Below, one piece after another: positions 2,101 to 24,365 of a DNA stretch of 64,000 nt. This stretch comes from a virus (lineage: Duplodnaviria > Caudoviricetes): IMG/VR virus record IMGVR_UViG_3300011335_000826, positions 24,254-88,253 of that record. One strand, written 5' to 3'. The notes below the pieces were generated by a model, which saw only the letters and a list, made by a program, of their open reading frames with translations, was not told the origin of the DNA and ran no database searches. A program made the position numbers and the translations under genes. Position 1 is the stretch's first letter. Each line of letters starts with the position of its first letter.

Positions 2101-2162
2101 TGTAGATGCCCATGGTGGGGTCTACATTCATAGTCATACTTGCTTATTAAAGGAGAAACAAC
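2101..2162 (+). ncRNA. Structured 5' leader, ROSE-like RNA thermometer candidate (hsp20)
   Basis: Hairpin UGUAGAU(G)CCCA-UGG-UGGG-GUCUACA, then UUGCU (2140) facing SD AAGGAG (2150). A paralogous leader lies at 12200-12255. Confidence 0.65.
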
Positions 2163-2609
2163 ATGACAAAAACTCTACACCTTCGTAGTTTCGATATCCC
2201 CGCATTCAACAAATTTGGAATTGGTTTTGAAAACCTGTTTGATGACCTACAGCGTGTCACACAGATTCAAAGTTCTTCCAACTACCCGCCCCACAATGTG
2301 ATCAAGACCGGTGACAACACTGTCACGATCGAAGTGGCCGTGGCAGGATTTGCTGAAGGCGAAATCGACATTGCGTTAGACAAGCGTTTGCTTACCATCA
2401 CAGGTGCCAAACAGCGTGATGACGATGCTGCACATGAATATCTACATCGTGGAATCTCTTCTAGAGATTTCAAGCAGACATTTCCGCTGGCAGAGCATGT
2501 GGAAGTCAAAGGTGCAACCATCCGTGATGGTATCTTGACTGTGCTGTTGGAACGCGAGATTCCTGAGTCAGCCAAGCCGAAGAGTATTGCGATCACTTAC
2601 ACTTCGTAA
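2163..2609 (+). CDS. Small heat shock protein Hsp20 (IbpA-like)
   Basis: Alpha-crystallin domain motifs NYPPHNVIK, EVAVAGF, YLHRGIS, A...DGILTV. Strong SD. Confidence 0.95.
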   Translation: MTKTLHLRSFDIPAFNKFGIGFENLFDDLQRVTQIQSSSNYPPHNVIKTGDNTVTIEVAVAGFAEGEIDIALDKRLLTITGAKQRDDDAAHEYLHRGISSRDFKQTFPLAEHVEVKGATIRDGILTVLLEREIPESAKPKSIAITYTS

Positions 2610-2619
2610 TATAATTGTG

Positions 2620-2649
2620 TAAATACAGTGGCAGGAATTACCCTGCCAC
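2620..2649 (+). promoter_or_regulatory. Late promoter TAAATA plus leader hairpin before clpS
   Basis: TAAATA 2620-2625. GTGGCAGG (2628) pairs with CCTGCCAC (2642). Confidence 0.5.
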
Positions 2650-2664
2650 TCCATGAGGAAAAAA

Positions 2665-2973
2665 ATGTCAAACGCAGAAGCAGCAACTATTACCCGTACA
2701 AAAAAAGCCGTCAAAGAGCCGCCTCTTTATCGCGTGATCTACATCAACGACAATACTACCACAATGGAATTTGTAGTAGGCAGTCTAGTTGAGTTCTTTG
2801 ACTATACAGTAGAAACTGCTACACAACTCACCGTAGATATCCATGAACATGGTCATGCTACTGTGGCTGTACTGCCTTTTGAGATTGCTGAACAAAAAGG
2901 CACAGAAGTCACAGCCAGTGCTCGCGAACAAGAATACCCATTGCAGATCAAACTAGAACCTGATTCAAAGTAA
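2665..2973 (+). CDS. clpS: ClpS N-end-rule adaptor
   Basis: PPLYRVIYINDNTTTMEFV...VDIHEHGHATV...EQKG...YPLQIKLE. Start placed at ATG 2665 after GAGGA. Confidence 0.92.
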   Translation: MSNAEAATITRTKKAVKEPPLYRVIYINDNTTTMEFVVGSLVEFFDYTVETATQLTVDIHEHGHATVAVLPFEIAEQKGTEVTASAREQEYPLQIKLEPDSK

Positions 2974-3777
2974 TCAAGTCTCTATTACAATGCGTTTAGG
3001 AAAATAAGGATTTTGATTGTAAGGGGTGTCTCCGCGCCCTCTACAGTTGTTGATGAAATGTATTCCGTTGATGTACTGATTCACGCTGCCGTGATAGTGC
3101 CCAAAACACCAAGTATGTATTTTTCTTTCAGTATCGTTGGTATGTACTAGATGCATGAGTCGATTGCCCATGTGATTGAATTTTTCAGTGCCTGACAGTT
3201 CGATATCATGTTTGATCAATTGTGCAGCAGGCACAGTATGAGTCACAATCACTATCTTTTTCACATCATTGTGTGTTTGTAATCTTTGTACCGTGTTTAT
3301 CAAATATGCCGCATCCTTACGACTCAGGTCACTGATTATCTCAGGGTCAAACTCATGATCGGGCATGACTTTAGCATACCAATCAACCATGCATTGTTTA
3401 GAGTGATCTCGGTCAATGGTTTCATCTAGATCATACCCCCACCACCCGTTGGTACCAATTATGGCTACACCGTCTATCACTACCACATTGTCTTGAAGAT
3501 AAGTCACCCGAGGAATTCTATTAACACTTCGTGCTAGATCTCGATAGCTGCCACCAAGATCGTGGAATCTAAATTTGTGCTCGTCGTTGCCTTCAATGTA
3601 GAAAACAGCCGCATAGCAGTTGGCGAGATGTTTAAGACAGTTTCTCACTATCCTAGGATCGGAACTGATGTCACCGGCTACCACACAGATTGGACTAGTA
3701 GGCTGGCCACTCCAGTCAAATTCGTCGGGCCAAGTTTCCAGATGCAGATCAGAAATTAAGTCAAATGCAATACTCAT
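2974..3777 (-). CDS. Calcineurin-like metallophosphoesterase
   Basis: DLHLE, AGDI, GNDEH, THT, FGHYH motifs. Confidence 0.88.
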   Translation of the reverse strand: MSIAFDLISDLHLETWPDEFDWSGQPTSPICVVAGDISSDPRIVRNCLKHLANCYAAVFYIEGNDEHKFRFHDLGGSYRDLARSVNRIPRVTYLQDNVVVIDGVAIIGTNGWWGYDLDETIDRDHSKQCMVDWYAKVMPDHEFDPEIISDLSRKDAAYLINTVQRLQTHNDVKKIVIVTHTVPAAQLIKHDIELSGTEKFNHMGNRLMHLVHTNDTERKIHTWCFGHYHGSVNQYINGIHFINNCRGRGDTPYNQNPYFPKRIVIET

Positions 3778-3801
3778 GATACATATTTAAAAGGAAATAC
3801 A

Positions 3802-4161
3802 ATGAACATAATATTTGGAGACAACATAGCCGAACTAGCCCGAGAAAAATATACCGTGCTAGAACTGGATACTCTTGTGATGTCTGGGCAAGATCAAACA
3901 GCTACTGCGTATGCAATAGTGGAAAAAATTCCCTTGCAAGAAATGTCCACCTTGGATCGGTTTCAAGATCTACACGATAATCTCATGAAGGAATACCGCA
4001 AGCGTAACTGGAAATATTGTGAGGATGCCATTGGTCATCTACAAGGACGATGGAACACCGAGATCGATACTTTTTACAGCGAATTGTATGACCGGATACA
4101 ATCGTTGAAAACACAATCATTGCCCGATGATTGGAGTGGATACATCACGAAATCGACTTGA
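3802..4161 (+). CDS. Hypothetical protein resembling the C-terminal tail of class III nucleotide cyclases
   Basis: Clean ORF with SD AAGGA. LELDT...Y...W...PDDWSG pattern. Resemblance recalled, not verified. Confidence 0.55.
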   Translation: MNIIFGDNIAELAREKYTVLELDTLVMSGQDQTATAYAIVEKIPLQEMSTLDRFQDLHDNLMKEYRKRNWKYCEDAIGHLQGRWNTEIDTFYSELYDRIQSLKTQSLPDDWSGYITKST

Positions 4162-5436
4162 TCTATGTCGACGAAGGTCACGAATCATGTTTCTCTGAGC
4201 TTGGTTTTTAAAACACGGATATTTGTTGCTTAGTCCTAACCGCCGAATTAGCTTTCTCCAAGCCCAATAAGTCTCACCTCGATTCTCCAGGTAAAAATCC
4301 ACAGCATGTTTGAGATTTATTTGTAATTCATCTGTCACCTGTTGTATAAAATCTCTGCTGAAAAAATGTTGTTTGTTGTAGCGGGTAATCTTGTTGATTT
4401 CTTTCCAATCTGATTGTGTCAACTGTTGTATCTGCTGCATGGTTTTTACGATCAGTTCCATGCGTTTTACAGTATCAGTTTCCAAATCATAACTTTCATC
4501 CCAAAAATCACCAAAGGTTTTAAACCCATAACCTTTGAGATATTCCAATGCACCTGGCCCGGCCAATAATACAAACGCATGGTCACAAGCAATAGGTCTT
4601 AAGATTTTTTCAGTCAAATGTATCTTAGGGCCATCAACCACTGTTTCTAACACCACACTGACAGCAGTGGTTGTGATATCATTGACATCATAATCGGCAC
4701 TGGCAGTCGGGAACGAGATATTATTTGGTATGCAAACAAGTCGTGAAGTATCCACTGAGAATCTTGGATCTTGGGAGATATAATCTTTGAGATGCACGCC
4801 TTGATTGTTCACATGTTGTGTGCTGATGATACAGTTGTCGGTCAGTCCAGCTTCTACTAGTAAATCAAGAAATTTTAATCTGTATTCTCGATTTGGCATC
4901 CAATCTCTGCAATACACTAAGAAAGTTTTTTCTATATGTCTTTGATCAAACCTGCTATCGTATTCAGCAAATCTATACCAATCTCTGGCTATCACAGCAT
5001 GACTCCAATAATAAACTGGTAAAAATCCAATTTGTCCAAACTGATCTACATCACTGCTATTTTTTTCACTATGCAGCAACACAAACCAATCGTCCATCAT
5101 GGTAGCTGCACTGAGCCAGTTTGGATTAAACTTAGGAAACAATGATGGATTTGAGTACAGGAACATCTCAAATTCTTTTTCTCCCAAAGTAAATTTTCTT
5201 CTGTCAAGTAACCGATCTAATCGATCTAGGTCATAGTCAAATTTATGGTCGGAAAAATTCAAAGGTTCTTGGTCATGACATATTATACTAGGAATCAACG
5301 ACCATGACGGATAATTGTCAAAAATATCGAGATCAAAAATATCTTTGCTACCATGTGGCTGGAATACATAAAGTATCACAGGGTGCTGTGCAAGACCGTG
5401 TATCCAGTGATAAAGATTATCTAAAGGAATGTTCAT
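4117..5436 (-). CDS. Putative glycosyltransferase-like protein (TEK family paralogue 1)
   Basis: VVLETV..KIHLTEKILRPI..GF.TF..FWDESYD, shared with 17278 and 18278. The TEK motif recalls GT10-like GT-B folds. Confidence 0.6.
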   Translation of the reverse strand: MNIPLDNLYHWIHGLAQHPVILYVFQPHGSKDIFDLDIFDNYPSWSLIPSIICHDQEPLNFSDHKFDYDLDRLDRLLDRRKFTLGEKEFEMFLYSNPSLFPKFNPNWLSAATMMDDWFVLLHSEKNSSDVDQFGQIGFLPVYYWSHAVIARDWYRFAEYDSRFDQRHIEKTFLVYCRDWMPNREYRLKFLDLLVEAGLTDNCIISTQHVNNQGVHLKDYISQDPRFSVDTSRLVCIPNNISFPTASADYDVNDITTTAVSVVLETVVDGPKIHLTEKILRPIACDHAFVLLAGPGALEYLKGYGFKTFGDFWDESYDLETDTVKRMELIVKTMQQIQQLTQSDWKEINKITRYNKQHFFSRDFIQQVTDELQINLKHAVDFYLENRGETYWAWRKLIRRLGLSNKYPCFKNQAQRNMIRDLRRHRSSRFRDVSTPIIGQ

Positions 5437-6675
5437 ATGAAGAAAATTGGATTTATTGGTATTGGTAAACTGGGATTAGATTGCGCCGAAGTCATGGCAG
5501 AGAAACATGAAGTCAGAGGCTATGATATTTACCCACGAACCAGTGACTCGGTAAAAGTTTGCGATATCGATGAATTGGTCAACGAAAGCGAATGGATCTT
5601 TATCGCTGTGCCGACTCCGCATGTAGAAGGGTATGATGGAAGCGTACCGTCGAGCCACATGGAACCAAAGGATTTTGGTCATGAAGCAGTGATTGATGCT
5701 ATCAACAAAATCAATACTCATGCTCGTAGTTCTAAGAAGGTGGTGCTGATCAGCACCGTGCTACCGGGTACCACACGCACACACTTTGCGGGACGGTTGG
5801 ATCCTACGCATCAGTTCTTATACAACCCTTATCTCATTGCCATGGGATCAGTGAAGTGGGACATGGTCAATCCAGAGATGATCATGATCGGCACAAAAGA
5901 TGGTGATTGGAATGGCGTAGCCGGCGAACTCCGAGACTTATACAACACAGTGATGCAGAACAACCCTCGTTACGAAATTGGCACCTGGGACGAATGCGAA
6001 GCCATCAAGATCTTCTACAACACATTCATTTCAGCCAAAGTAGGTCTGGTAAACATGATACAAGACTTTGCTATGAAGATTGGCAATATCAATGTGGATG
6101 TTGTGACCAACGCATTGGCCCGCAGCACCATGCGTATCATGGGTCCAAAATACATGACAGCGGGCATGGGTGATGCAGGTGCTTGCCATCCAAGAGACAA
6201 CATCGCCTTGCGTTGGTTGGCCAAAGAGTATGACATTGGTTACGACTTGTTTGACACAGTGATGCATGCTAGAGAGATCCAGGCGCGTAACCTGGCACAT
6301 TTCCTGATCGATCATGCCAAACAAAATGCCATGGGCATAGTGATCCACGGCAAAGCATACAAGCCCGATGTTCCATATTGCATTGGTTCATATAGTACCT
6401 TGGTTGGATACTATGTTAAACAAGCAGGGTTTGAAGTTAGATATCTTGACCCACTAGCAGATGATCCTACAGATGTGATTGAAAAGTTGTCACATCCTGC
6501 TGTTATTCTTTGGGCACATGATCGCAAAATCACATATGAATATACCGGTGATCAACCCGAAACGCAACCCTATTGCGATATTCCCCAAGGGTCAGTGATC
6601 GTTGATCCATGGCGTAAACTCAATGACATGACCGGACTAACTGTGGTCCACTATGGTAACACCCGCGCAAAATAA
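5437..6675 (+). CDS. UDP-glucose/GDP-mannose dehydrogenase family protein
   Basis: GIGKLG Rossmann motif, IAVPTP, YNP, EAIKIFYNTF, GMGDAGACHPRD with catalytic Cys, AYKP. Confidence 0.9.
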   Translation: MKKIGFIGIGKLGLDCAEVMAEKHEVRGYDIYPRTSDSVKVCDIDELVNESEWIFIAVPTPHVEGYDGSVPSSHMEPKDFGHEAVIDAINKINTHARSSKKVVLISTVLPGTTRTHFAGRLDPTHQFLYNPYLIAMGSVKWDMVNPEMIMIGTKDGDWNGVAGELRDLYNTVMQNNPRYEIGTWDECEAIKIFYNTFISAKVGLVNMIQDFAMKIGNINVDVVTNALARSTMRIMGPKYMTAGMGDAGACHPRDNIALRWLAKEYDIGYDLFDTVMHAREIQARNLAHFLIDHAKQNAMGIVIHGKAYKPDVPYCIGSYSTLVGYYVKQAGFEVRYLDPLADDPTDVIEKLSHPAVILWAHDRKITYEYTGDQPETQPYCDIPQGSVIVDPWRKLNDMTGLTVVHYGNTRAK

Positions 6676-7174
6676 TACCTGGGCACAAGGGCATGTAGAT
6701 CCTTGGTGGGGTCTACGGCACAAGGATCTAGTCTATATCAACGAGCCATTCAACGATCAGACCAGTCTTGCAGAATGGCGTAGACTAGGTTACTCACAGA
6801 GTAGATTCACTGGCGACATGTATGACATGCGTAACAGTGAACCTGTGTGGGTAGATCCATTCCGCAACATATTTCCTTTTAAAAGATTCTCCTGGAGTTT
6901 CTATCGTATGGCACCGGGCTGTGTGCTACCTGCACATAGAGATACCTATGATCGATTCAAACTCATACATGGATTAGAAACCACCCATTCGGTAGTGAGA
7001 ACCATAGTATTTCTAGAAGATTGGGCTAGTGGGCATTACATGGAAATGAACGGAACACCCTTCACAGGATGGCGTGCTGGAGATTGGGTATCATGGCACG
7101 ATGACTTTTTACACTTAGCGGCCAACATGGGCCAAACTGATAGATATACATTACAACTAACCGGAACTGTATGA
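6653..7174 (+). CDS. 2OG-Fe(II) oxygenase / cupin-fold protein
   Basis: PAHRD (HxD) ... HLAAN ... RYTLQLTG. Paralogous to 59564..60259. Confidence 0.7.
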   Translation: MVTPAQNNTWAQGHVDPWWGLRHKDLVYINEPFNDQTSLAEWRRLGYSQSRFTGDMYDMRNSEPVWVDPFRNIFPFKRFSWSFYRMAPGCVLPAHRDTYDRFKLIHGLETTHSVVRTIVFLEDWASGHYMEMNGTPFTGWRAGDWVSWHDDFLHLAANMGQTDRYTLQLTGTV

Positions 7175-8088
7175 AAATACATAGTTACAATGAATGGGAT
7201 CCTCTAAGATCCGTAGTAGTAGGGCGTGCTGATCATGCCAATTGGCCGGTAAATGATCCTGTGTTCAAGTTAGAAAGTGAACGCACACTATGGAAAGAAA
7301 CACCTGTGCCATCTGGCGCAGTACCGGATTGGATCATTGAACAAGCCAACGAAGATCTTGAAGAACTGGTCAATACATTGAAATCACTCGGAGTAGAAGT
7401 ATTCCGTCCAGACGATTTCAACTTCCAAACTCACGATGGCATGTATAACTACTGCCCACGAGATCGACTGTTGGTGTACGGCGACACTATAGTGAATCCT
7501 GCCATGATGTATCCTTGCAGAGATATGGAACTGCAATGCTATCACGATGTTGTGGATTCGGCTGCCAACTACCTATTCATGCCTCGCCACGAAGGAATGA
7601 CCCTGGATGCGGCCAACATCGCTAGACTTAATGATCGCTGGATCTTCCTAGAATCGGCTTCGGGCAATCGTGCTGCATATGAATGGCTGCAAGGACATTT
7701 CCCCAAGGTCGATATTGAATTAGCAAACTTCTACTCGGGTGTGCATATTGATTCTACCATAGTGCCCCTGCGTGAAGGGCTTGTGCTAGTCAACGGCAGT
7801 CGTGTGAATCCTATGAACTTGCCTCGAGTATTGCGAGACTGGGAAGTGGTTTATTGTAGTCATGTGGAAGAACAAGGATTCTTTCAATACCCATATGCAT
7901 CAAAATGGATAGCATTAAATATGTTGGTAGTGGATCCTCACACTGTGATCGTGGACAAAGATCAGTCCATGTTGATTTCATGGTTGGAAAATAACAAATT
8001 CACAGTGATACCCATGCAACTGCGTCACAGCAGGACCTTGGGCGGTGGTTTCCATTGCGTTACACTGGACCTACATAGAGAAGCATGA
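7171..8088 (+). CDS. Amidinotransferase (glycine/inosamine-phosphate amidinotransferase-like)
   Basis: NEWDPL..VVVG, CPRD, DAAN, HID, N.L, GGGFHCVT: pentein catalytic Asp/His/Cys. Confidence 0.9.
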   Translation: MKIHSYNEWDPLRSVVVGRADHANWPVNDPVFKLESERTLWKETPVPSGAVPDWIIEQANEDLEELVNTLKSLGVEVFRPDDFNFQTHDGMYNYCPRDRLLVYGDTIVNPAMMYPCRDMELQCYHDVVDSAANYLFMPRHEGMTLDAANIARLNDRWIFLESASGNRAAYEWLQGHFPKVDIELANFYSGVHIDSTIVPLREGLVLVNGSRVNPMNLPRVLRDWEVVYCSHVEEQGFFQYPYASKWIALNMLVVDPHTVIVDKDQSMLISWLENNKFTVIPMQLRHSRTLGGGFHCVTLDLHREA

Positions 8089-8639
8089 ACATAGCATGGT
8101 TGTTTGCAGAAAACACAGTATTACCGCCTACCACACCAGTGCAGGCTATAAAGGATCTCGCCCCCATCTGGGGTAGTTGGCGCACCCAAAGAAGTTACCA
8201 GTCCGACAATGTGGTATGTTGGGATCCGGATCAAGCAGAGAAATTAGTACGCCAAGGCTACGCCAAGACCTGCAATCTCTACATACCTGAACCTGTTTAT
8301 CAACAATTAGGCAAACCCAAAGGTGTGCGAGTGTTTGGTGGCGGATTCGAGTTTGCGGTGGATTCGGTTGACGACATAATAGCCACACACTTAGTTGCAA
8401 GTGTGGCGGATGTGATACTCATGATAGGATTCGATTTGGAAACCAAGACCAAACCCAGCGCCGGCAGAAACAACTATATCGGTATCCTAGCCCAGGCTAT
8501 CGCAGCCAGCGGTAAGCAATGGGTGATCATAGATCATCACACCGATTTAGCCGAACCCATCCAAAAACTCTCCAATATCACTAGAGATCTATTGCCAAAT
8601 GTGTTACAATTACTGGGTAACAACAACAACGGTAACTGA
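8085..8639 (+). CDS. Hypothetical protein
   Basis: ATGA-coupled to the amidinotransferase. Contains a MIGFD motif. Confidence 0.7.
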   Translation: MNIAWLFAENTVLPPTTPVQAIKDLAPIWGSWRTQRSYQSDNVVCWDPDQAEKLVRQGYAKTCNLYIPEPVYQQLGKPKGVRVFGGGFEFAVDSVDDIIATHLVASVADVILMIGFDLETKTKPSAGRNNYIGILAQAIAASGKQWVIIDHHTDLAEPIQKLSNITRDLLPNVLQLLGNNNNGN

Positions 8640-8641
8640 TC

Positions 8642-9664
8642 ATGGCACGATTTGGATTTTGCTGCAAGTGGCTCAATGACCCTTCAGAAACTGGAGGTAT
8701 GAAAGTCAATGCAGTTGACCGCGATATCAACGGTCGGTCAACCACCATGCGTTGGCTACGCGAACACAAAGGCGAAGCCGAACAGCGTCAGTGGGACATC
8801 ATGAACCACAATGCCCGTGCTGCTCTACTCATGGTCGAGCGTGTGGGTGCTATGGTGCCTGAACGCCGTATGGTGCGACTGGGCAGCGAAATGCTACAAG
8901 GCTACACTGAACCGTCGTGGATTGATTGGTGGCAACGACAAGAAATTCAAGACCACTGTGAAAAGATCTTTGCTCCTGTGGGCGAAGCTGCTCGTCGACT
9001 GGGTGTGCGGCTCAGCTTCCACCCTGGACAGTTCTGTGTGCTGGCAAGTGAAGCAGATGAGATTGTAGAACGCAGTATACTAGAGTTTGAATACCATGCA
9101 GACATGGCTCGTTGGATGGGCTATGGCTCTTCGTGGCATGATCACGGTTTTAAGATAAATGTGCATTTAAGCGGTAAAGGTGGCCCCGCTAAATTCCTGC
9201 GTACTCTGGGTCGACTCTCGCCCGAAGCCAGGAATCTAATCGCCATCGAGAATGATGAGATGACAAATGGTATTGACATTACTTTGGCTGTGGCTGAGCA
9301 TTGTGCTCTTACGCTGGACATCCACCACCACTGGATCAACAGCGGTGAATACATCACCCCCCAAGACCCTCGGGCGCGTCGCGTTGTGGAGTCTTGGCGT
9401 GGTGCTCGTCCTGCACTTCACTATAGTGTTAGCCGTGAAGATATTCTGGTTGATCACGATTCCGGAACTAGACCAGATCTCGCGCAGTTACTCGACCGGG
9501 GATACCGTAAACAAAAGCTTCGAGCCCATTCGGACTTTCTTTGGAACACGGCTGTGACTGACTGGGCATTGACATTCAGTGAAGATTGGGATATCCAAGT
9601 AGAAGCCAAAGGCAAGAACTTGGCCACTGATCAACTGCATCGACAATGGCTAAATCAGCAATGA
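8642..9664 (+). CDS. uvsE: UV damage endonuclease UvsE/UvdE
   Basis: RFGFCC, RLSFHPGQF, NVHLSG, IENDE, DIHHH, PALHYS, RAHSD, VEAKGK. Confidence 0.93.
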   Translation: MARFGFCCKWLNDPSETGGMKVNAVDRDINGRSTTMRWLREHKGEAEQRQWDIMNHNARAALLMVERVGAMVPERRMVRLGSEMLQGYTEPSWIDWWQRQEIQDHCEKIFAPVGEAARRLGVRLSFHPGQFCVLASEADEIVERSILEFEYHADMARWMGYGSSWHDHGFKINVHLSGKGGPAKFLRTLGRLSPEARNLIAIENDEMTNGIDITLAVAEHCALTLDIHHHWINSGEYITPQDPRARRVVESWRGARPALHYSVSREDILVDHDSGTRPDLAQLLDRGYRKQKLRAHSDFLWNTAVTDWALTFSEDWDIQVEAKGKNLATDQLHRQWLNQQ

Positions 9665-9666
9665 GT

Positions 9667-9701
9667 TTGTAACACTACTGTAACATGATTGTGTTTAAAT
9701 A
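9667..9701 (+). promoter_or_regulatory. Pho-box-like direct repeats upstream of pstS
   Basis: TTGTAAC-ACTA-CTGTAAC-ATGA-TTGTGTT with an 11-bp period (9667, 9678, 9689), followed by TAAATA at 9696. Confidence 0.65.
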
Positions 9702-9749
9702 GAAGTGTGCATTCGCACATTCTATCATTCACTAACCAAGGAGAAATCA

Positions 9750-10745
9750 GTGAAAAAACTCATTACCATGTTACTCGCAGTTGTTGCATTCGCAGCAACA
9801 GCACAAGAAATTACTGGAGCCGGAGCAACATTTCCGGCTCCCCTCTATGCAAAGTGGGCCAGCGAATACAACAAGGCCACTAACATCAAGATCAATTATC
9901 AATCAGTTGGTTCTGGTGCAGGTATCAAACAGATCGAAGCCAAGACTGTGACCTTTGGTGCCAGTGACATGCCGCTCACAGACGACAAACTAGCAGCATC
10001 GGGCTTGTTCCAGTTTCCCACAGCCATCGGTGGTGTGGTTCCTGTGATCAATGTCAAAGGCATTGAGCCCGGACAACTACGCCTAACAGGTTCTGTTATG
10101 GCTGACATCTTCTTGGGCAAGATCACCCGTTGGGATGATGCTGCTATCAAGGCATTGAACCCGTCACTCGCATTACCTGATCAAGCCATCACAGTGGTTC
10201 GCCGTGCAGATGGATCCGGAACAACATTTATCTGGACCAACTACTTGAGCAAGGTCAGTAAAGAGTTCAAAGAGACTATTGGTGAAGGTACTGCTGTGAG
10301 TTGGAAAACAGGGGCAGGTGGCAAGGGCAACGAAGGCGTTTCTGCTATGGTTCGCCAACTTCCAGGAGCATTCGGCTATGTTGAATTTGCTTATGTAAAG
10401 CAGACCAAGATGAACTGGGTTAATGTGCAGAATGCTGCCGGCACTTGGGTTGCACCTACAGAAGATTCTTTCAAAGCAGCCGCTGCCAACGCTGATTGGA
10501 ACAAAACATACTATCAAATCCTCACAAACCAAGCAGGCAAAGAAGCATGGCCTATCTCGGGTGCTACATTTATCCTTGTGCATGTGAAGCCAGGCGATGC
10601 TGCTGCATCTAAAACTGCTCTAACATTCTTTGATTGGGCGTTCAACAACGGTGACAAAGCCGCAGATGACTTGGATTATGTGGCATTGCCTCCGGCAGTC
10701 AAAGCCAAGATCCGTGCTGATTGGAAGCAGTTGGGATTGAATTAA
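9750..10745 (+). CDS. pstS: Phosphate ABC transporter substrate-binding protein PstS
   Basis: Signal peptide, ITGAGATFP, YQSVGSGAG, FGASD, RRADGSGTT, GKGNEGV, WPISGATF. GTG start after AAGGAG. Confidence 0.96.
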   Translation: MKKLITMLLAVVAFAATAQEITGAGATFPAPLYAKWASEYNKATNIKINYQSVGSGAGIKQIEAKTVTFGASDMPLTDDKLAASGLFQFPTAIGGVVPVINVKGIEPGQLRLTGSVMADIFLGKITRWDDAAIKALNPSLALPDQAITVVRRADGSGTTFIWTNYLSKVSKEFKETIGEGTAVSWKTGAGGKGNEGVSAMVRQLPGAFGYVEFAYVKQTKMNWVNVQNAAGTWVAPTEDSFKAAAANADWNKTYYQILTNQAGKEAWPISGATFILVHVKPGDAAASKTALTFFDWAFNNGDKAADDLDYVALPPAVKAKIRADWKQLGLN

Positions 10746-10790
10746 ACCGACCTCAAGATAGAGAGGAGGCTGGAACTCGTAACCAGCACT

Positions 10791-10812
10791 AAAGGACTTC
10801 GGTCCTTTTTTT
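10791..10812 (+). terminator. Rho-independent terminator with UUCG tetraloop
   Basis: AAAGGAC-TTCG-GTCCTTT followed by a T run. Confidence 0.85.
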
Positions 10813-10858
10813 ATGACTATTTGTATATTATGGATCTGTCTTGGCACTAAGTATTTGT

Positions 10859-10921
10859 ATGAGTTGGTTCCGTCATAAACCCCCAAAATACCCTCCACCA
10901 CCGCCTCCAAAACAATTATAG
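10859..10921 (+). CDS. 20-aa polyproline micro-ORF (MSWFRHKPPKYPPPPPPKQL)
   Basis: Not in the ORF track. TAAGTA at 10848 lies 5 nt before the ATG, the same geometry as other late genes. Confidence 0.4.
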   Translation: MSWFRHKPPKYPPPPPPKQL

Positions 10922-11407
10922 ATGTTTCACTGTTATCAGTTGGAATAGGATAGTGCAGACGGGTATTATTACACACAAACTGCCCATGAACCACAGTGTG
11001 GCCATCATGGCGTTGTATTTCATCTCTCGATCTTTTTGCTTTTGTTCTTCTATACGCCGATCTTCGGCTCGTCGCTCTTCCATCATGCGTAGTCGTTCGG
11101 CCTGCATCTCGTAATACACATCTGCATTGCCGCTCCAAAACAAGATATCTTTTAGTTCTTTTTCGTGTGCTCTCAATGCTCTTGATTGCATGGCCATTTC
11201 CAGAGCCTTGGCATTGATCTCCGCATTGCTCATGCGTATGCTTTCTATCTTGGCCTTGGTAGCAGAGTGATGTAGCACATCTGCTGCTTGATAGAACTTG
11301 CTGAAGTCGTTTATGAGGCCGTTGACATCTTTGCCCAGTTGCACGGCTTTTTTGATACCGGCCACTGCGGCCTGAGCTATAGCAAAGGCTGTGAAAGGAT
11401 CTATCAT
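10916..11407 (-). CDS. Hypothetical coiled-coil protein with C-terminal transmembrane helix
   Basis: ORF track. Helical body and hydrophobic C-terminus. Coupled to 11404..11610. Confidence 0.75.
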   Translation of the reverse strand: MIDPFTAFAIAQAAVAGIKKAVQLGKDVNGLINDFSKFYQAADVLHHSATKAKIESIRMSNAEINAKALEMAMQSRALRAHEKELKDILFWSGNADVYYEMQAERLRMMEERRAEDRRIEEQKQKDREMKYNAMMATLWFMGSLCVIIPVCTILFQLITVKHL

Positions 11408-11610
11408 GGCACCCTCCTCATCCAGGGTTTGTCTTTAACTTCCCATTGTAAACATACACTAGGTTGATTCTGGCTGGGGTCCGAGGATCCAGTCCATCTC
11501 ACACATACATATTCTTTGTTCTTGTCTAATTTTCCAGTAGGAGGCGGTGGCGGATTGCTCGCACTAAGCGGTATTGATACCAAAATCAGAACAAGATAGT
11601 ATTGACGCAT
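11404..11610 (-). CDS. Small secreted protein
   Basis: Signal-like N-terminus, PPPPP linker, two Cys (YVCVRW...VCLQW). Confidence 0.65.
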   Translation of the reverse strand: MRQYYLVLILVSIPLSASNPPPPPTGKLDKNKEYVCVRWTGSSDPSQNQPSVCLQWEVKDKPWMRRVP

Positions 11611-11640
11611 GAGTCATAGCGATGCCATATATTTGAGGCC

Positions 11641-11673
11641 AAAAAGAAACCCCACTATTATTTAAGTGGGGTT
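11641..11673 (-). terminator. Terminator hairpin carrying TAAATA at its loop
   Basis: Minus strand AACCCCACT-TAAATAAT-AGTGGGGTT-TCTTTTT. Confidence 0.65.
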
Positions 11674-11695
11674 GGGAGAAAGAAAACCTAGTGTT

Positions 11696-12070
11696 TTACT
11701 GTGCGGTCTTTTTTGCTCGAGGTTTTGCTGGTGCCTTGATCGCAGCAGGCTTCTTCACAGCAGGTTTGCGTGGCTTCTTCACTGGCTCGGGCACAACCAC
11801 TTTGGTCACAAAGTCAGGATTGCTGGTGCTGGTTGCCCATTGTTCAGGTGTGAGTTTGTGTAAGCCAACACAGTATCCTGTGGCACTACGACCGCAACCG
11901 CATTTGGGTGGCTCGTTGGCCGGAGTCAATGGAATCGGGGTTGTAGCAGCAGGTGGTTCCAACTTGTATGGTGCTTGGGGCACAGCGGGTGTGGTCACTG
12001 CATCCAGAGGATGAGCGTATTTGCTTTCGGGTTTCTTTCCGGTAAAGAATTCGACGATTTTCTTGAACAT
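11696..12070 (-). CDS. CDGSH-like Fe-S/Zn-finger protein with Lys/Ala/Pro-rich tail
   Basis: CGCGRSATGYCVGLH (CxCxxS...CxGxH), C-terminal KKPAAIKAPAKPRAKK. TATAAATA upstream. Confidence 0.6.
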   Translation of the reverse strand: MFKKIVEFFTGKKPESKYAHPLDAVTTPAVPQAPYKLEPPAATTPIPLTPANEPPKCGCGRSATGYCVGLHKLTPEQWATSTSNPDFVTKVVVPEPVKKPRKPAVKKPAAIKAPAKPRAKKTAQ

Positions 12071-12131
12071 GGGTGTCTCCTATGCTTTATTTATAACTGG
12101 GCACATTTAGGCAAAAAAATCTGACAAAAAG

Positions 12132-12178
12132 ATGTGCGGTCGCAGCATATTTTGCCGAACTTTGCTGCGACCGCACAT
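12132..12178. repeat. Perfect 16-bp inverted repeat, each arm a PhaR-like TGC-N4-GCA box
   Basis: ATGTGCGGTCGCAGCA (12132-12147), 15-nt spacer, TGCTGCGACCGCACAT (12163-12178), abutting TAAATA. Confidence 0.8.
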
Positions 12179-12199
12179 AAATAGTGTTACAATAGAACA

Positions 12200-12255
12200 T
12201 AGGATGCTGCATGGTGCGGGTCCTATAGTCTACTTGCTTATCTAAGGAGAAACCC
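12200..12255 (+). ncRNA. Structured 5' leader, ROSE-like, paralogous to the hsp20 leader
   Basis: UAGGAU(G)CUGCA-UGG-UGCGG-GUCCUA hairpin, then TAGTC-TACTTGCTTATCTAAGGAGAAAC, nearly identical to 2131-2159. Confidence 0.65.
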
Positions 12256-12537
12256 ATGTTCACAGCAGACACAATGATCGACACCGTTCAAAACAGTAAA
12301 AAACAATTCGTCAAGACTTTCGTCACCAACGAGCACATCGCCGAGTCAATGAATCATTTCATTGACACACAGGCTGAATACACCAAAAAGGCTTTCAAAG
12401 CTACCACAGATGCAGCCATAGAAATCATGCAAGAAACTCAAAAAGCCATGCGTGAAGCTGCCAAGTTTGACTACAGCAAATTTGGCGAAGGTATCATGAA
12501 AGCATATCAAGCCAATGGGAAGACCAAAGGAGCATAA
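12256..12537 (+). CDS. Phasin-like (PHA granule-associated) protein
   Basis: 93-aa amphipathic all-helical protein (IDTVQNSKKQFVKTF...FIDTQAEYTK). Upstream PhaR-like boxes support the call. Confidence 0.55.
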   Translation: MFTADTMIDTVQNSKKQFVKTFVTNEHIAESMNHFIDTQAEYTKKAFKATTDAAIEIMQETQKAMREAAKFDYSKFGEGIMKAYQANGKTKGA

Positions 12538-23637: not shown

Positions 23638-24365
23638 CAACACCTGCATGGTTACCTGACAAAAGATATTATGAATATCTCAACCATAAGATACGCACCC
23701 CGGGCGTAGAATGGGACACTTGGCGTCCTTGGGATCAATGGACTTATCCAGATGAAGTGATTACATGGCTAAGTCATCTGATTGAAAAACAAATCCCCCA
23801 CATACAAAACCGCCGCGTTTTGGATGCTGGATGTGCTCAGGGCTTTGTGAGTCTGTTCTGTCTCCACAACAATGCCAGCTATGTGACTGGGCTGGATGTA
23901 AGAGATACCCCGCTGGAACTGGCCAGAGAAGTGACCCAGTTGGCCGGATATTCAAACTGCAACTTTAAGGTAGGGGACATCCAAGGTCCAGAATTTCGAA
24001 AGTTATGCGATGACCACGATACTGTGCTCATATCAGGAACACTGCAATATCTCACAGATCATTACTCTGTGCTACGCACCATTGCAGAATCCCGTGCCCA
24101 AACAGTTATACTGAATTCATGCACCTCGCCCATACATGCAGACTCCCAACCTGTGGTAGAATGGAGTTTGAAGCCCACCACACAGGTAGAAGAAGCAGAC
24201 TATAATCAACCATATCATCCAACACGCACTGAGCTATTTCTTGGCCAACCCAATCATACATGGACAGAACAGGCACTGCGCTCACTAGGATATAAAATCA
24301 CCTACAGTGAGATTTGGCAATACGGGCCTTGGATACACTATGTTCTAACAGGAACCAAATCATGA
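23634..24365 (+). CDS. Class I SAM-dependent methyltransferase
   Basis: VLDAGCAQG, VTGLD, FKVGDI, GTLQY. Confidence 0.85.
   Translation: MTTPAWLPDKRYYEYLNHKIRTPGVEWDTWRPWDQWTYPDEVITWLSHLIEKQIPHIQNRRVLDAGCAQGFVSLFCLHNNASYVTGLDVRDTPLELAREVTQLAGYSNCNFKVGDIQGPEFRKLCDDHDTVLISGTLQYLTDHYSVLRTIAESRAQTVILNSCTSPIHADSQPVVEWSLKPTTQVEEADYNQPYHPTRTELFLGQPNHTWTEQALRSLGYKITYSEIWQYGPWIHYVLTGTKS

Follow-up and report, generated by a model that had tools for sequence, protein, structure and literature searches.

We analysed a stretch of 64,000 nucleotides (nt), referred to below as the window, which covers positions 24,254 to 88,253 of the IMG/VR record IMGVR_UViG_3300011335_000826. The contig from which the window was taken has 88 kb and an estimated completeness of 26%; it stems from an uncultured phage, described as a giant freshwater phage. 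No DNA similarity to the window was observed in deposited phages. Two genes are of interest here, both on the plus strand, as are their promoters and leaders. The gene hsp20 (2163–2609) codes for an IbpA-like small heat-shock protein of 148 amino acids (Pfam HSP20, E = 2.1e-15; PHROG 432, E = 9.6e-38). The second gene (12256–12537) codes for a conserved protein of 93 amino acids with a three-helix model and 749 homologues (the 93-aa protein); an initial annotation, made from the sequence alone, had called it phasin-like. The start codons, read from the sequence, are the AUGs at 2163 and 12256. The subject of this analysis is the RNA element shared by the 5′ leaders of these two genes, which resembles RNA thermometers of the ROSE type.

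Each leader has two hairpins. In the hsp20 leader, hairpin I occupies positions 2101–2126 and corresponds to positions 1–27 of the Rfam family ROSE_3; a 7-bp lower stem (2101–2107 with 2120–2126) is followed by the bulged G2108, a 4-bp upper stem (2109–2112 with 2116–2119) and a UGG loop. RNAfold predicts this hairpin throughout the range of 4–50°C. Hairpin I of the 93-aa gene, placed by RNAfold and by alignments to ROSE_3 and to our covariance model R1 (see below), starts at 12199 or 12200, ends at 12225 or 12226 and consists of a lower stem, the bulged G12206, a 5-bp upper stem and a UGG loop (RNAfold −11.4 kcal/mol, z = −2.9). The lower stems of the two hairpins differ in sequence, with pairing intact in both. 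The initial annotation had described both leaders as a bulged-G stem with a UGG loop whose pairing is kept despite differing sequence, and this can be read directly from the DNA.

Hairpin II is the ROSE core, located by the ROSE_3 and R1 alignments at 2139–2155 in the hsp20 leader and at 12233–12249 in the leader of the 93-aa gene. The anti-Shine-Dalgarno (anti-SD) sequence CUU(G)CUU at 2139–2145 is predicted to pair with AAGGAG at 2150–2155, with G2142 unpaired and a loop AUUA; likewise, CUU(G)CUU at 12233–12239 would pair with AAGGAG at 12244–12249, with G12236 unpaired and a loop AUCU. In both cores one C-U-U pairs with G-A-G and the other with A-A-G of the Shine-Dalgarno (SD) sequence; pairing of this kind with the intervening G left out is the ROSE arrangement. 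The hairpin belongs to a near-identical 23-nt block that runs up to the start codon in both leaders. Allowing up to three mismatches, the block occurs exactly twice in the window (none expected, as estimated from 100 shuffles), and the entire 88-kb contig likewise has two, no more. One element does stand in front of two unrelated genes, as had been proposed.

At the Rfam gathering threshold the window is without any match. In a permissive covariance-model scan (cmscan) of two 100-nt slices, both leaders were aligned to ROSE_3 (RF02523) over its full length (positions 1–69 of 69), with scores of 24.1 bits (E = 0.0016) and 26.4 bits (E = 0.0004); the gathering cut-off of this family is 43 bits. 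A genome search of the whole contig with RF02523 gave no hit, which we attribute to filtering and do not count as evidence. Relatives of the leaders in other phages have 30–37 bits on ROSE_3. None of the other thermometer families matched either leader in the permissive scan, and there was no match to classical ROSE (RF00435) or ROSE_2 (RF01832) at E-values up to 10. The positive control, the ibpA leader of Pseudomonas aeruginosa, was taken from a record labelled Pseudomonas phage Y7 (label unverified) that carries an ibpA-type gene; it has 69.2 bits on ROSE_3 and 27 bits on R1. In the predicted structures G2142 and G12236 align to the bulge position of both models. The suggestion that the upstream bulged-G hairpin may be an unnamed motif has to be withdrawn, since the ROSE_3 consensus already contains a hairpin I of the form GAU-G-CC...GG-GUC with the G bulged. 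The leaders are not a new motif; they represent a phage version within an RNA thermometer family that is already known.

Weak matches to another Rfam family, the freshwater-2 RNA (RF02980), were seen at 2106–2165 (E = 1.2) and 12205–12258 (E = 8.3). The 3′ end of freshwater-2 has the same AAGGAGAAAA...AUG context as the two leaders. We rejected identity with this family, as the matches are not significant and arise mainly through the common ribosome-binding-site context. The freshwater-2 motif itself may have been derived from leaders of related freshwater phages.

The short ROSE-like type was described by Krajewski, Nagel and Narberhaus (2013, PMC3669281) as two hairpins in front of Pseudomonas ibpA. 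In hairpin II of Pseudomonas U(U/C)GCU is imperfectly paired to the SD sequence and melts with heat. Hairpin I is conserved and G-C-rich and stays closed; its role is not understood, a stabilizing effect on the mRNA was proposed, and hairpin II without hairpin I sufficed for thermoregulation. G-C pairs flank the SD/anti-SD core on both sides in all Pseudomonas sequences, and the upper G-C clamp was required for repression in Pseudomonas putida (PMC3669281). The phage leaders share with this type the two hairpins placed right after the putative transcription start, the same bulged-G hairpin I, a hairpin II in which U(U/C)GCU faces the SD sequence with the G unpaired and, for the hsp20 copy, an IbpA-type small heat-shock gene downstream. 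They differ from it in that the second copy of the window precedes a gene without a recognizable family, the phage scores are 24–37 bits versus the cut-off of 43, the upper part of hairpin II has three A-U-rich pairs instead of four and is ∼4 kcal/mol weaker, the promoters appear to be of sigma-70 or phage late type rather than sigma-32, and the element is phage-borne and also found before dnaK, groES and the 93-aa gene.

The classical rhizobial ROSE (RF00435) and the enterobacterial ibpA element ROSE_2 (RF01832) also have the U(U/C)GCU anti-SD motif with an unpaired G, but they consist of three or four hairpins. In these longer ROSE elements the start codon lies inside the final hairpin, a situation comparable to helix P3 of the phage leaders (see below). 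The only phage RNA thermometer known to us is the lambda cIII case, and literature searches, mostly aimed at phages, returned no description of a ROSE-like element in a phage. ROSE-like elements at ABC transporter genes (PMC11342760, PMC12857270) also extend such thermometers beyond heat-shock genes; these are bacterial, however, and phages, viruses and phasins are not mentioned there.

To characterize the element further we used 35 IMG/VR loci with the exact hairpin II motif and 55 further loci with homologues of the 93-aa protein. When leaders were folded singly, a bulged-G hairpin followed by the anti-SD sequence appeared in 54 out of 55, and R1 was built from 49 of the individually folded leaders. 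In the window R1 has only the two copies, with 69.2 bits (93-aa leader) and 64.8 bits. An independent set comprised 80 phage hsp20 loci picked by protein similarity alone; an R1 match ending at the start codon was found in 71 of the 77 testable loci (three of the nine non-matching loci had no upstream sequence). The fraction of paired cells was 91.5% in the first set (62 distinct hits), as compared with 75% in shuffled sequences and 43–56% with slid partners, and 92.4% in the independent set (66 distinct sequences); over both sets the controls gave 74–75% for shuffles and 34–56% for slid partners. Double-sided changes were observed at 10 of the 11 pairs of hairpin I in the first set and at 9 of 11 in the independent set. 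Hairpin I, then, covaries strongly among homologues, as found with a covariance model applied to phage metagenome loci and compared with the Rfam ROSE families. This result, together with the ROSE-type pairing of U(U/C)GCU with the SD sequence, bears out the earlier view of the leader as a structured RNA maintained by compensatory changes.

The bulge-adjacent pair of hairpin I is U.G in 42 of the 62 and in 49 of the 66 sequences. Such frequent U.G pairs make the fold strand-specific, which argues for RNA rather than a DNA operator. One could otherwise suppose that the leader holds an inverted-repeat operator for a heat-shock repressor, of CIRCE or HAIR type, given that an inverted repeat lies directly downstream of a promoter and before chaperone genes. 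However, on the opposite strand the numerous U.G pairs would turn into A.C mismatches, the hairpin is made asymmetric by its bulge, pairing persists although the stem sequence is free to vary, and there is no known similarity to the CIRCE or HAIR consensus; we regard such an operator as extremely improbable.

Conservation within hairpin I is confined to the bulged G and the C-G pair next to it, with the other stem positions free to vary. Bulged-purine hairpins are classic protein sites. It is conceivable that hairpin I acts as an operator for a protein or a small RNA, its bulged G with fixed flanks (Y-G-C ... G-G) being read by a phage or host factor, for instance in chaperone feedback; the fixed bulged G and adjacent C-G pair in an otherwise variable stem extend from Pseudomonas to phages and are left unexplained in the literature (PMC3669281). 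We found no candidate factor, though, hairpin II of Pseudomonas thermoregulates without hairpin I, and the element spans phages of cyanobacteria, SAR11, OM43 and rhizobia, which argues against a host-specific partner. We consider this possibility quite unlikely.

Hairpin II is nearly invariant, with U.G to C-G as its sole common change; near-invariance is expected because the partner is the SD sequence. Across the 62 and 66 distinct relatives the anti-SD motif is UUGCU or UCGCU. The UUGCU form pairs over 6 bp, and the stronger UCGCU form over 5 bp only; this trade-off in length is consistent with a stability that selection would hold marginal.

The hsp20 copy of the element spans phages from T4-like cyanophages to Pelagibacter phages. 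We observed it before hsp20 in the six cultured or deposited records tested (five phages and the Pseudomonas control), with R1 scores of 52.6 bits in Methylophilales phage Melnitz, 43.0 in cyanophage P-RSM6, 33.7 in Sinorhizobium jumbo phage Phosso, 24.4 in phage C48C1 and 23.9 in Pelagibacter phage HTVC115P. Among eight near-complete (91–100%) jumbo-phage genomes of 315–353 kb, seven have two R1 copies and one has three. The pairs are always made of hsp20 and the 93-aa gene, 10–25 kb apart, and the third copy precedes groES (Cpn10, E = 1.9e-32); in other contigs the element is found before dnaK (HSP70, E about 1e-260). All identifiable genes behind the leader code for chaperones (HSP20, HSP70, Cpn10), with the 93-aa gene as the exception. 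The element thus is the normal leader of phage hsp20 in T4-like cyanophages, SAR11 and OM43 phages and 350-kb freshwater phages; its use on a second gene family without known function and the helix over the start codon are the less ordinary parts.

The initial annotation envisaged a duplication of the module in this phage. A recent duplication is contradicted by 12 related jumbo-phage genomes, in which each leader is kept before its own gene, and by the wide spread of the hsp20 copy, from T4-like cyanophages to Pelagibacter phages. We also asked whether concerted evolution or gene conversion had made the two copies of a genome more alike, and rejected this: in these 12 genomes the similarity of matched hsp20 and 93-aa leaders (0.728) is no higher than that of mismatched ones (0.724; permutation p = 0.38). 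The leader pair of the window is the most similar one in the matrix (0.85), a single case.

An origin from a sequenced host was also rejected. The exact hairpin II motif had 14 hits in 185,579 bacterial and archaeal species genomes, and these look like chance, possibly with the exception of one locus, L116. As the exact motif is essentially absent from these genomes, this version appears to belong to phages. L116 (positions 4921–4986) lies on a 7.9-kb contig binned into a Clostridia metagenome-assembled genome from roe deer rectum; it has the same hairpin II block and 36.6 bits on R1, and its first hairpin is different, being perfect and G-C-rich. This contig may be of phage origin. In another locus, on a viral contig (L015, 8911–8991), the exact hairpin II block precedes a 115-aa gene, and the first hairpin also differs and has no bulged G.

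The 749 homologues of the 93-aa protein are all unnamed and come from viral or metagenome sources. The protein is found only in viruses and is conserved in every near-complete genome of the jumbo-phage clade; it is absent from deposited phages. The AlphaFold2 model has three helices (predicted local distance difference test, pLDDT, 83.6). It has no match in Pfam, and six homologues gave no phasin family at E-values up to 10; in the PDB neither sequence profiles nor Foldseek gave a match, with no phasins among PDB sequences. The nearest named clusters of a language-model atlas (Atlas) are Phasin_2, PHB_acc and PHA_synth_III_E, all families of polyhydroxyalkanoate (PHA) granules, with similarities of 0.84–0.89, to be taken as a lead only. 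Thus, of the label ‘phasin-like’ there remains the weak lead from these language-model neighbours; the searches for Phasin_2 (PF09361) and Phasin (PF05597), in the PDB and with Foldseek all came back blank.

The best functional clue to the 93-aa protein is the leader shared with chaperone genes. One could speculate that this leader marks a post-transcriptional proteostasis regulon of the phage (Hsp20, DnaK, GroES and the 93-aa protein), that the 93-aa protein would be a new part of this chaperone machinery, such as a holdase partner or a protein coating hydrophobic inclusions, and that the bulged-G core may be a recognition site for a further factor and not a passive stabilizer; we put this forward as a tentative and rather improbable extension.

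In the hsp20 leader the minimum-energy structure of RNAfold contains a further helix, P3, formed by GUCAU at 2133–2137 and AUGAC at 2163–2167, the first five bases of hsp20. P3 closes hairpin II and covers the start codon (duplex −5.5 kcal/mol). Of the 60 unique hsp20 leaders in the independent set, 41 have a P3 of −4 kcal/mol or below; the corresponding frequencies were 5% with the 5′ arm shuffled and 29% with mismatched partners. Compensating versions of P3 in hsp20 leaders track the second codon (UAGUCA/UGACUA, CGUUC/GAACG, CAUUC/GAAUG), and ACUCA/UGAGU is a further one. Most leaders of 93-aa genes have the P3 GUAAAC/GUUUAC, with −6.1 kcal/mol. The start codon of Pseudomonas is unpaired (PMC3669281), so that P3, added in many phage copies, is a real design difference.

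By nearest-neighbour calculation the energy of hairpin II of hsp20 alone goes from −2.7 kcal/mol at 4°C through about 0 at 27°C to +1.0 at 37°C. Hairpin II and P3 together (P2 + P3) start from −8.2 kcal/mol at 4°C, and warming to 25 and 42°C raises this to −3.5 and +0.4, respectively. Several observations weigh against temperature sensing or against membership in the family. Both leaders score below the ROSE_3 gathering cut-off. The lower C-G pair of the core is kept (2139–2155 and 12233–12249), and the upper closing pair is U-A instead of the G-C clamp. Hairpin II alone is ∼4 kcal/mol weaker than that of P. aeruginosa and is predicted to be unstable above ∼27°C. In partition-function folding the SD sequence is unpaired with a probability of ∼0.5 throughout 4–50°C, as compared with a rise from 0.01 to 0.36 in the Pseudomonas control; with this flat accessibility the energy model gives no clear thermal switch. 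The window's own 93-aa leader has no P3 (GUCUAC versus GUUCAC gives only −1.1 kcal/mol), and at 15°C and above RNAfold predicts for this leader (12200–12273) a competing structure that joins the start-codon region and codons 3–4 to the upper part of hairpin I. The CAUGG/CCAUG interaction between the loop and the start codon in this alternative fold was considered and dropped, as the complementarity is not kept in relatives; in the 93-aa leader it is probably due to chance.

Chowdhury et al. reportedly described, in 2006, non-canonical pairs around the ROSE G. The energy model is blind to such pairs, and the folding figures therefore do not decide the question of thermosensing. Arguments in favour of thermosensing are that the element descends from a proven thermometer, that it is restricted to chaperone genes, that the UUGCU and UCGCU forms compensate in length, and that P2 + P3 of the hsp20 leader goes from −8.2 to +0.4 kcal/mol between 4 and 42°C. 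We infer that the phage leaders may sense temperature.

The flat accessibility and the free energy of hairpin II, just −2.7 to +1.0 kcal/mol over 4–37°C, would also fit a constitutive cassette, where hairpin I stabilizes the 5′ end of the mRNA, as Krajewski et al. proposed (PMC3669281), and the weak anti-SD pairing sets a fixed, moderate level of translation; the element would then be a former thermometer, insensitive in the temperature range of the host. Such a cassette hardly explains why the anti-SD sequence and the unpaired G are almost invariant across very distant phages, nor why the element is confined to chaperone genes, and the length compensation between UUGCU and UCGCU, along with the covarying P3, points to selection on marginal stability. 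We see a constitutive role as rather unlikely. On balance it seems fairly probable to us that the two leaders form part of a branch, carried by phages, of the short ROSE-like RNA thermometers with two hairpins (ROSE_3 type).

If the leaders are such thermometers, the mechanism could be as follows. Transcription would start at hairpin I, or a base or two from it. Hairpin I, stable and with its invariant bulged G, would not melt; its probable role is to shield the 5′ end and to allow independent folding of the weak structure downstream. In hairpin II the anti-SD CUU(G)CUU would mask AAGGAG with the G unpaired, and in the hsp20 leader only, the third helix GUCAU/AUGAC would mask the start codon as well. 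At low temperature the ribosome would be excluded, and warming, or some other opening of the marginal helices, would free the site. In this way the phage could tune synthesis of the 93-aa protein and of the chaperones that it encodes (Hsp20 in this phage, DnaK and GroES in related ones) independently of the heat-shock regulon of the host; as the phage promoters appear to be of sigma-70 or late type and not sigma-32, a cis-acting RNA would permit such control. Should temperature sensing be true, phages would match their chaperone supply to temperature without the sigma-32 response of the host, and the shared leader would be a testable functional clue for an abundant unannotated family of viral proteins. 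The very weak hairpin II would then be that of a thermometer tuned to cold waters; that it suits cold lake water is speculation.

The promoters were assigned by reading the sequence. The likely promoter of hsp20 (2066–2096) has TTGACA at 2066–2071, a spacer of 17 nt and TATAAA(TA) at 2089–2096, which would place the transcription start at ∼2101–2103, the foot of hairpin I. It was missed by a scan with the sigma-70 consensus because the −10 hexamer is without the final T. The octamer TATAAATA, which we take to be the T4-type late promoter consensus, is found upstream of hairpin I in the hsp20 leaders of cultured phages. For the 93-aa gene the likely extended −10 is TGTTACAAT at 12185–12193, with a transcription start expected at ∼12199–12201; homologous loci have TGTTACAAT or TATATAAT at an equal distance. 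The initial annotation had both leaders following TAAATA. For hsp20 this stands, as part of the −10-like TATAAATA at 2089–2096, whereas the TAAATA before the 93-aa gene (12178–12183) is upstream of the likelier −10 TGTTACAAT. Moreover, TATAAATA occurs twice in the 88 kb versus 5.3 copies expected from composition, so the shared hexamer carries little weight alone, and TATAAATA as an over-represented late promoter of the contig was rejected on the same count. The other TATAAATA of the contig, on the minus strand at 12088–12095, precedes a divergent gene for a protein of 124 amino acids (11696–12070, minus strand), which has a short leader without a ROSE-like element.

As for the gene neighbourhood, hsp20 is flanked by clpX (602–1807) and clpS (2653–2973), and the cluster at 602–2973 is made of clpX, an open reading frame for 90 amino acids, hsp20 and clpS. 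With the promoter and the ROSE-like leader inside the clpX–clpS cluster, hsp20 would be under its own control within a proteostasis block.

A perfect 16-bp inverted repeat (12132–12147 and 12163–12178) with a spacer of 15 nt was observed between the divergent genes, immediately upstream of the −10 element that serves the 93-aa gene. Homologous loci have in the same place a single short TGC-rich palindrome of the type TGTTGC...GCAACA. The repeat at 12132–12178 resembles a conserved operator, acting on the DNA level, that covers the −35 region.

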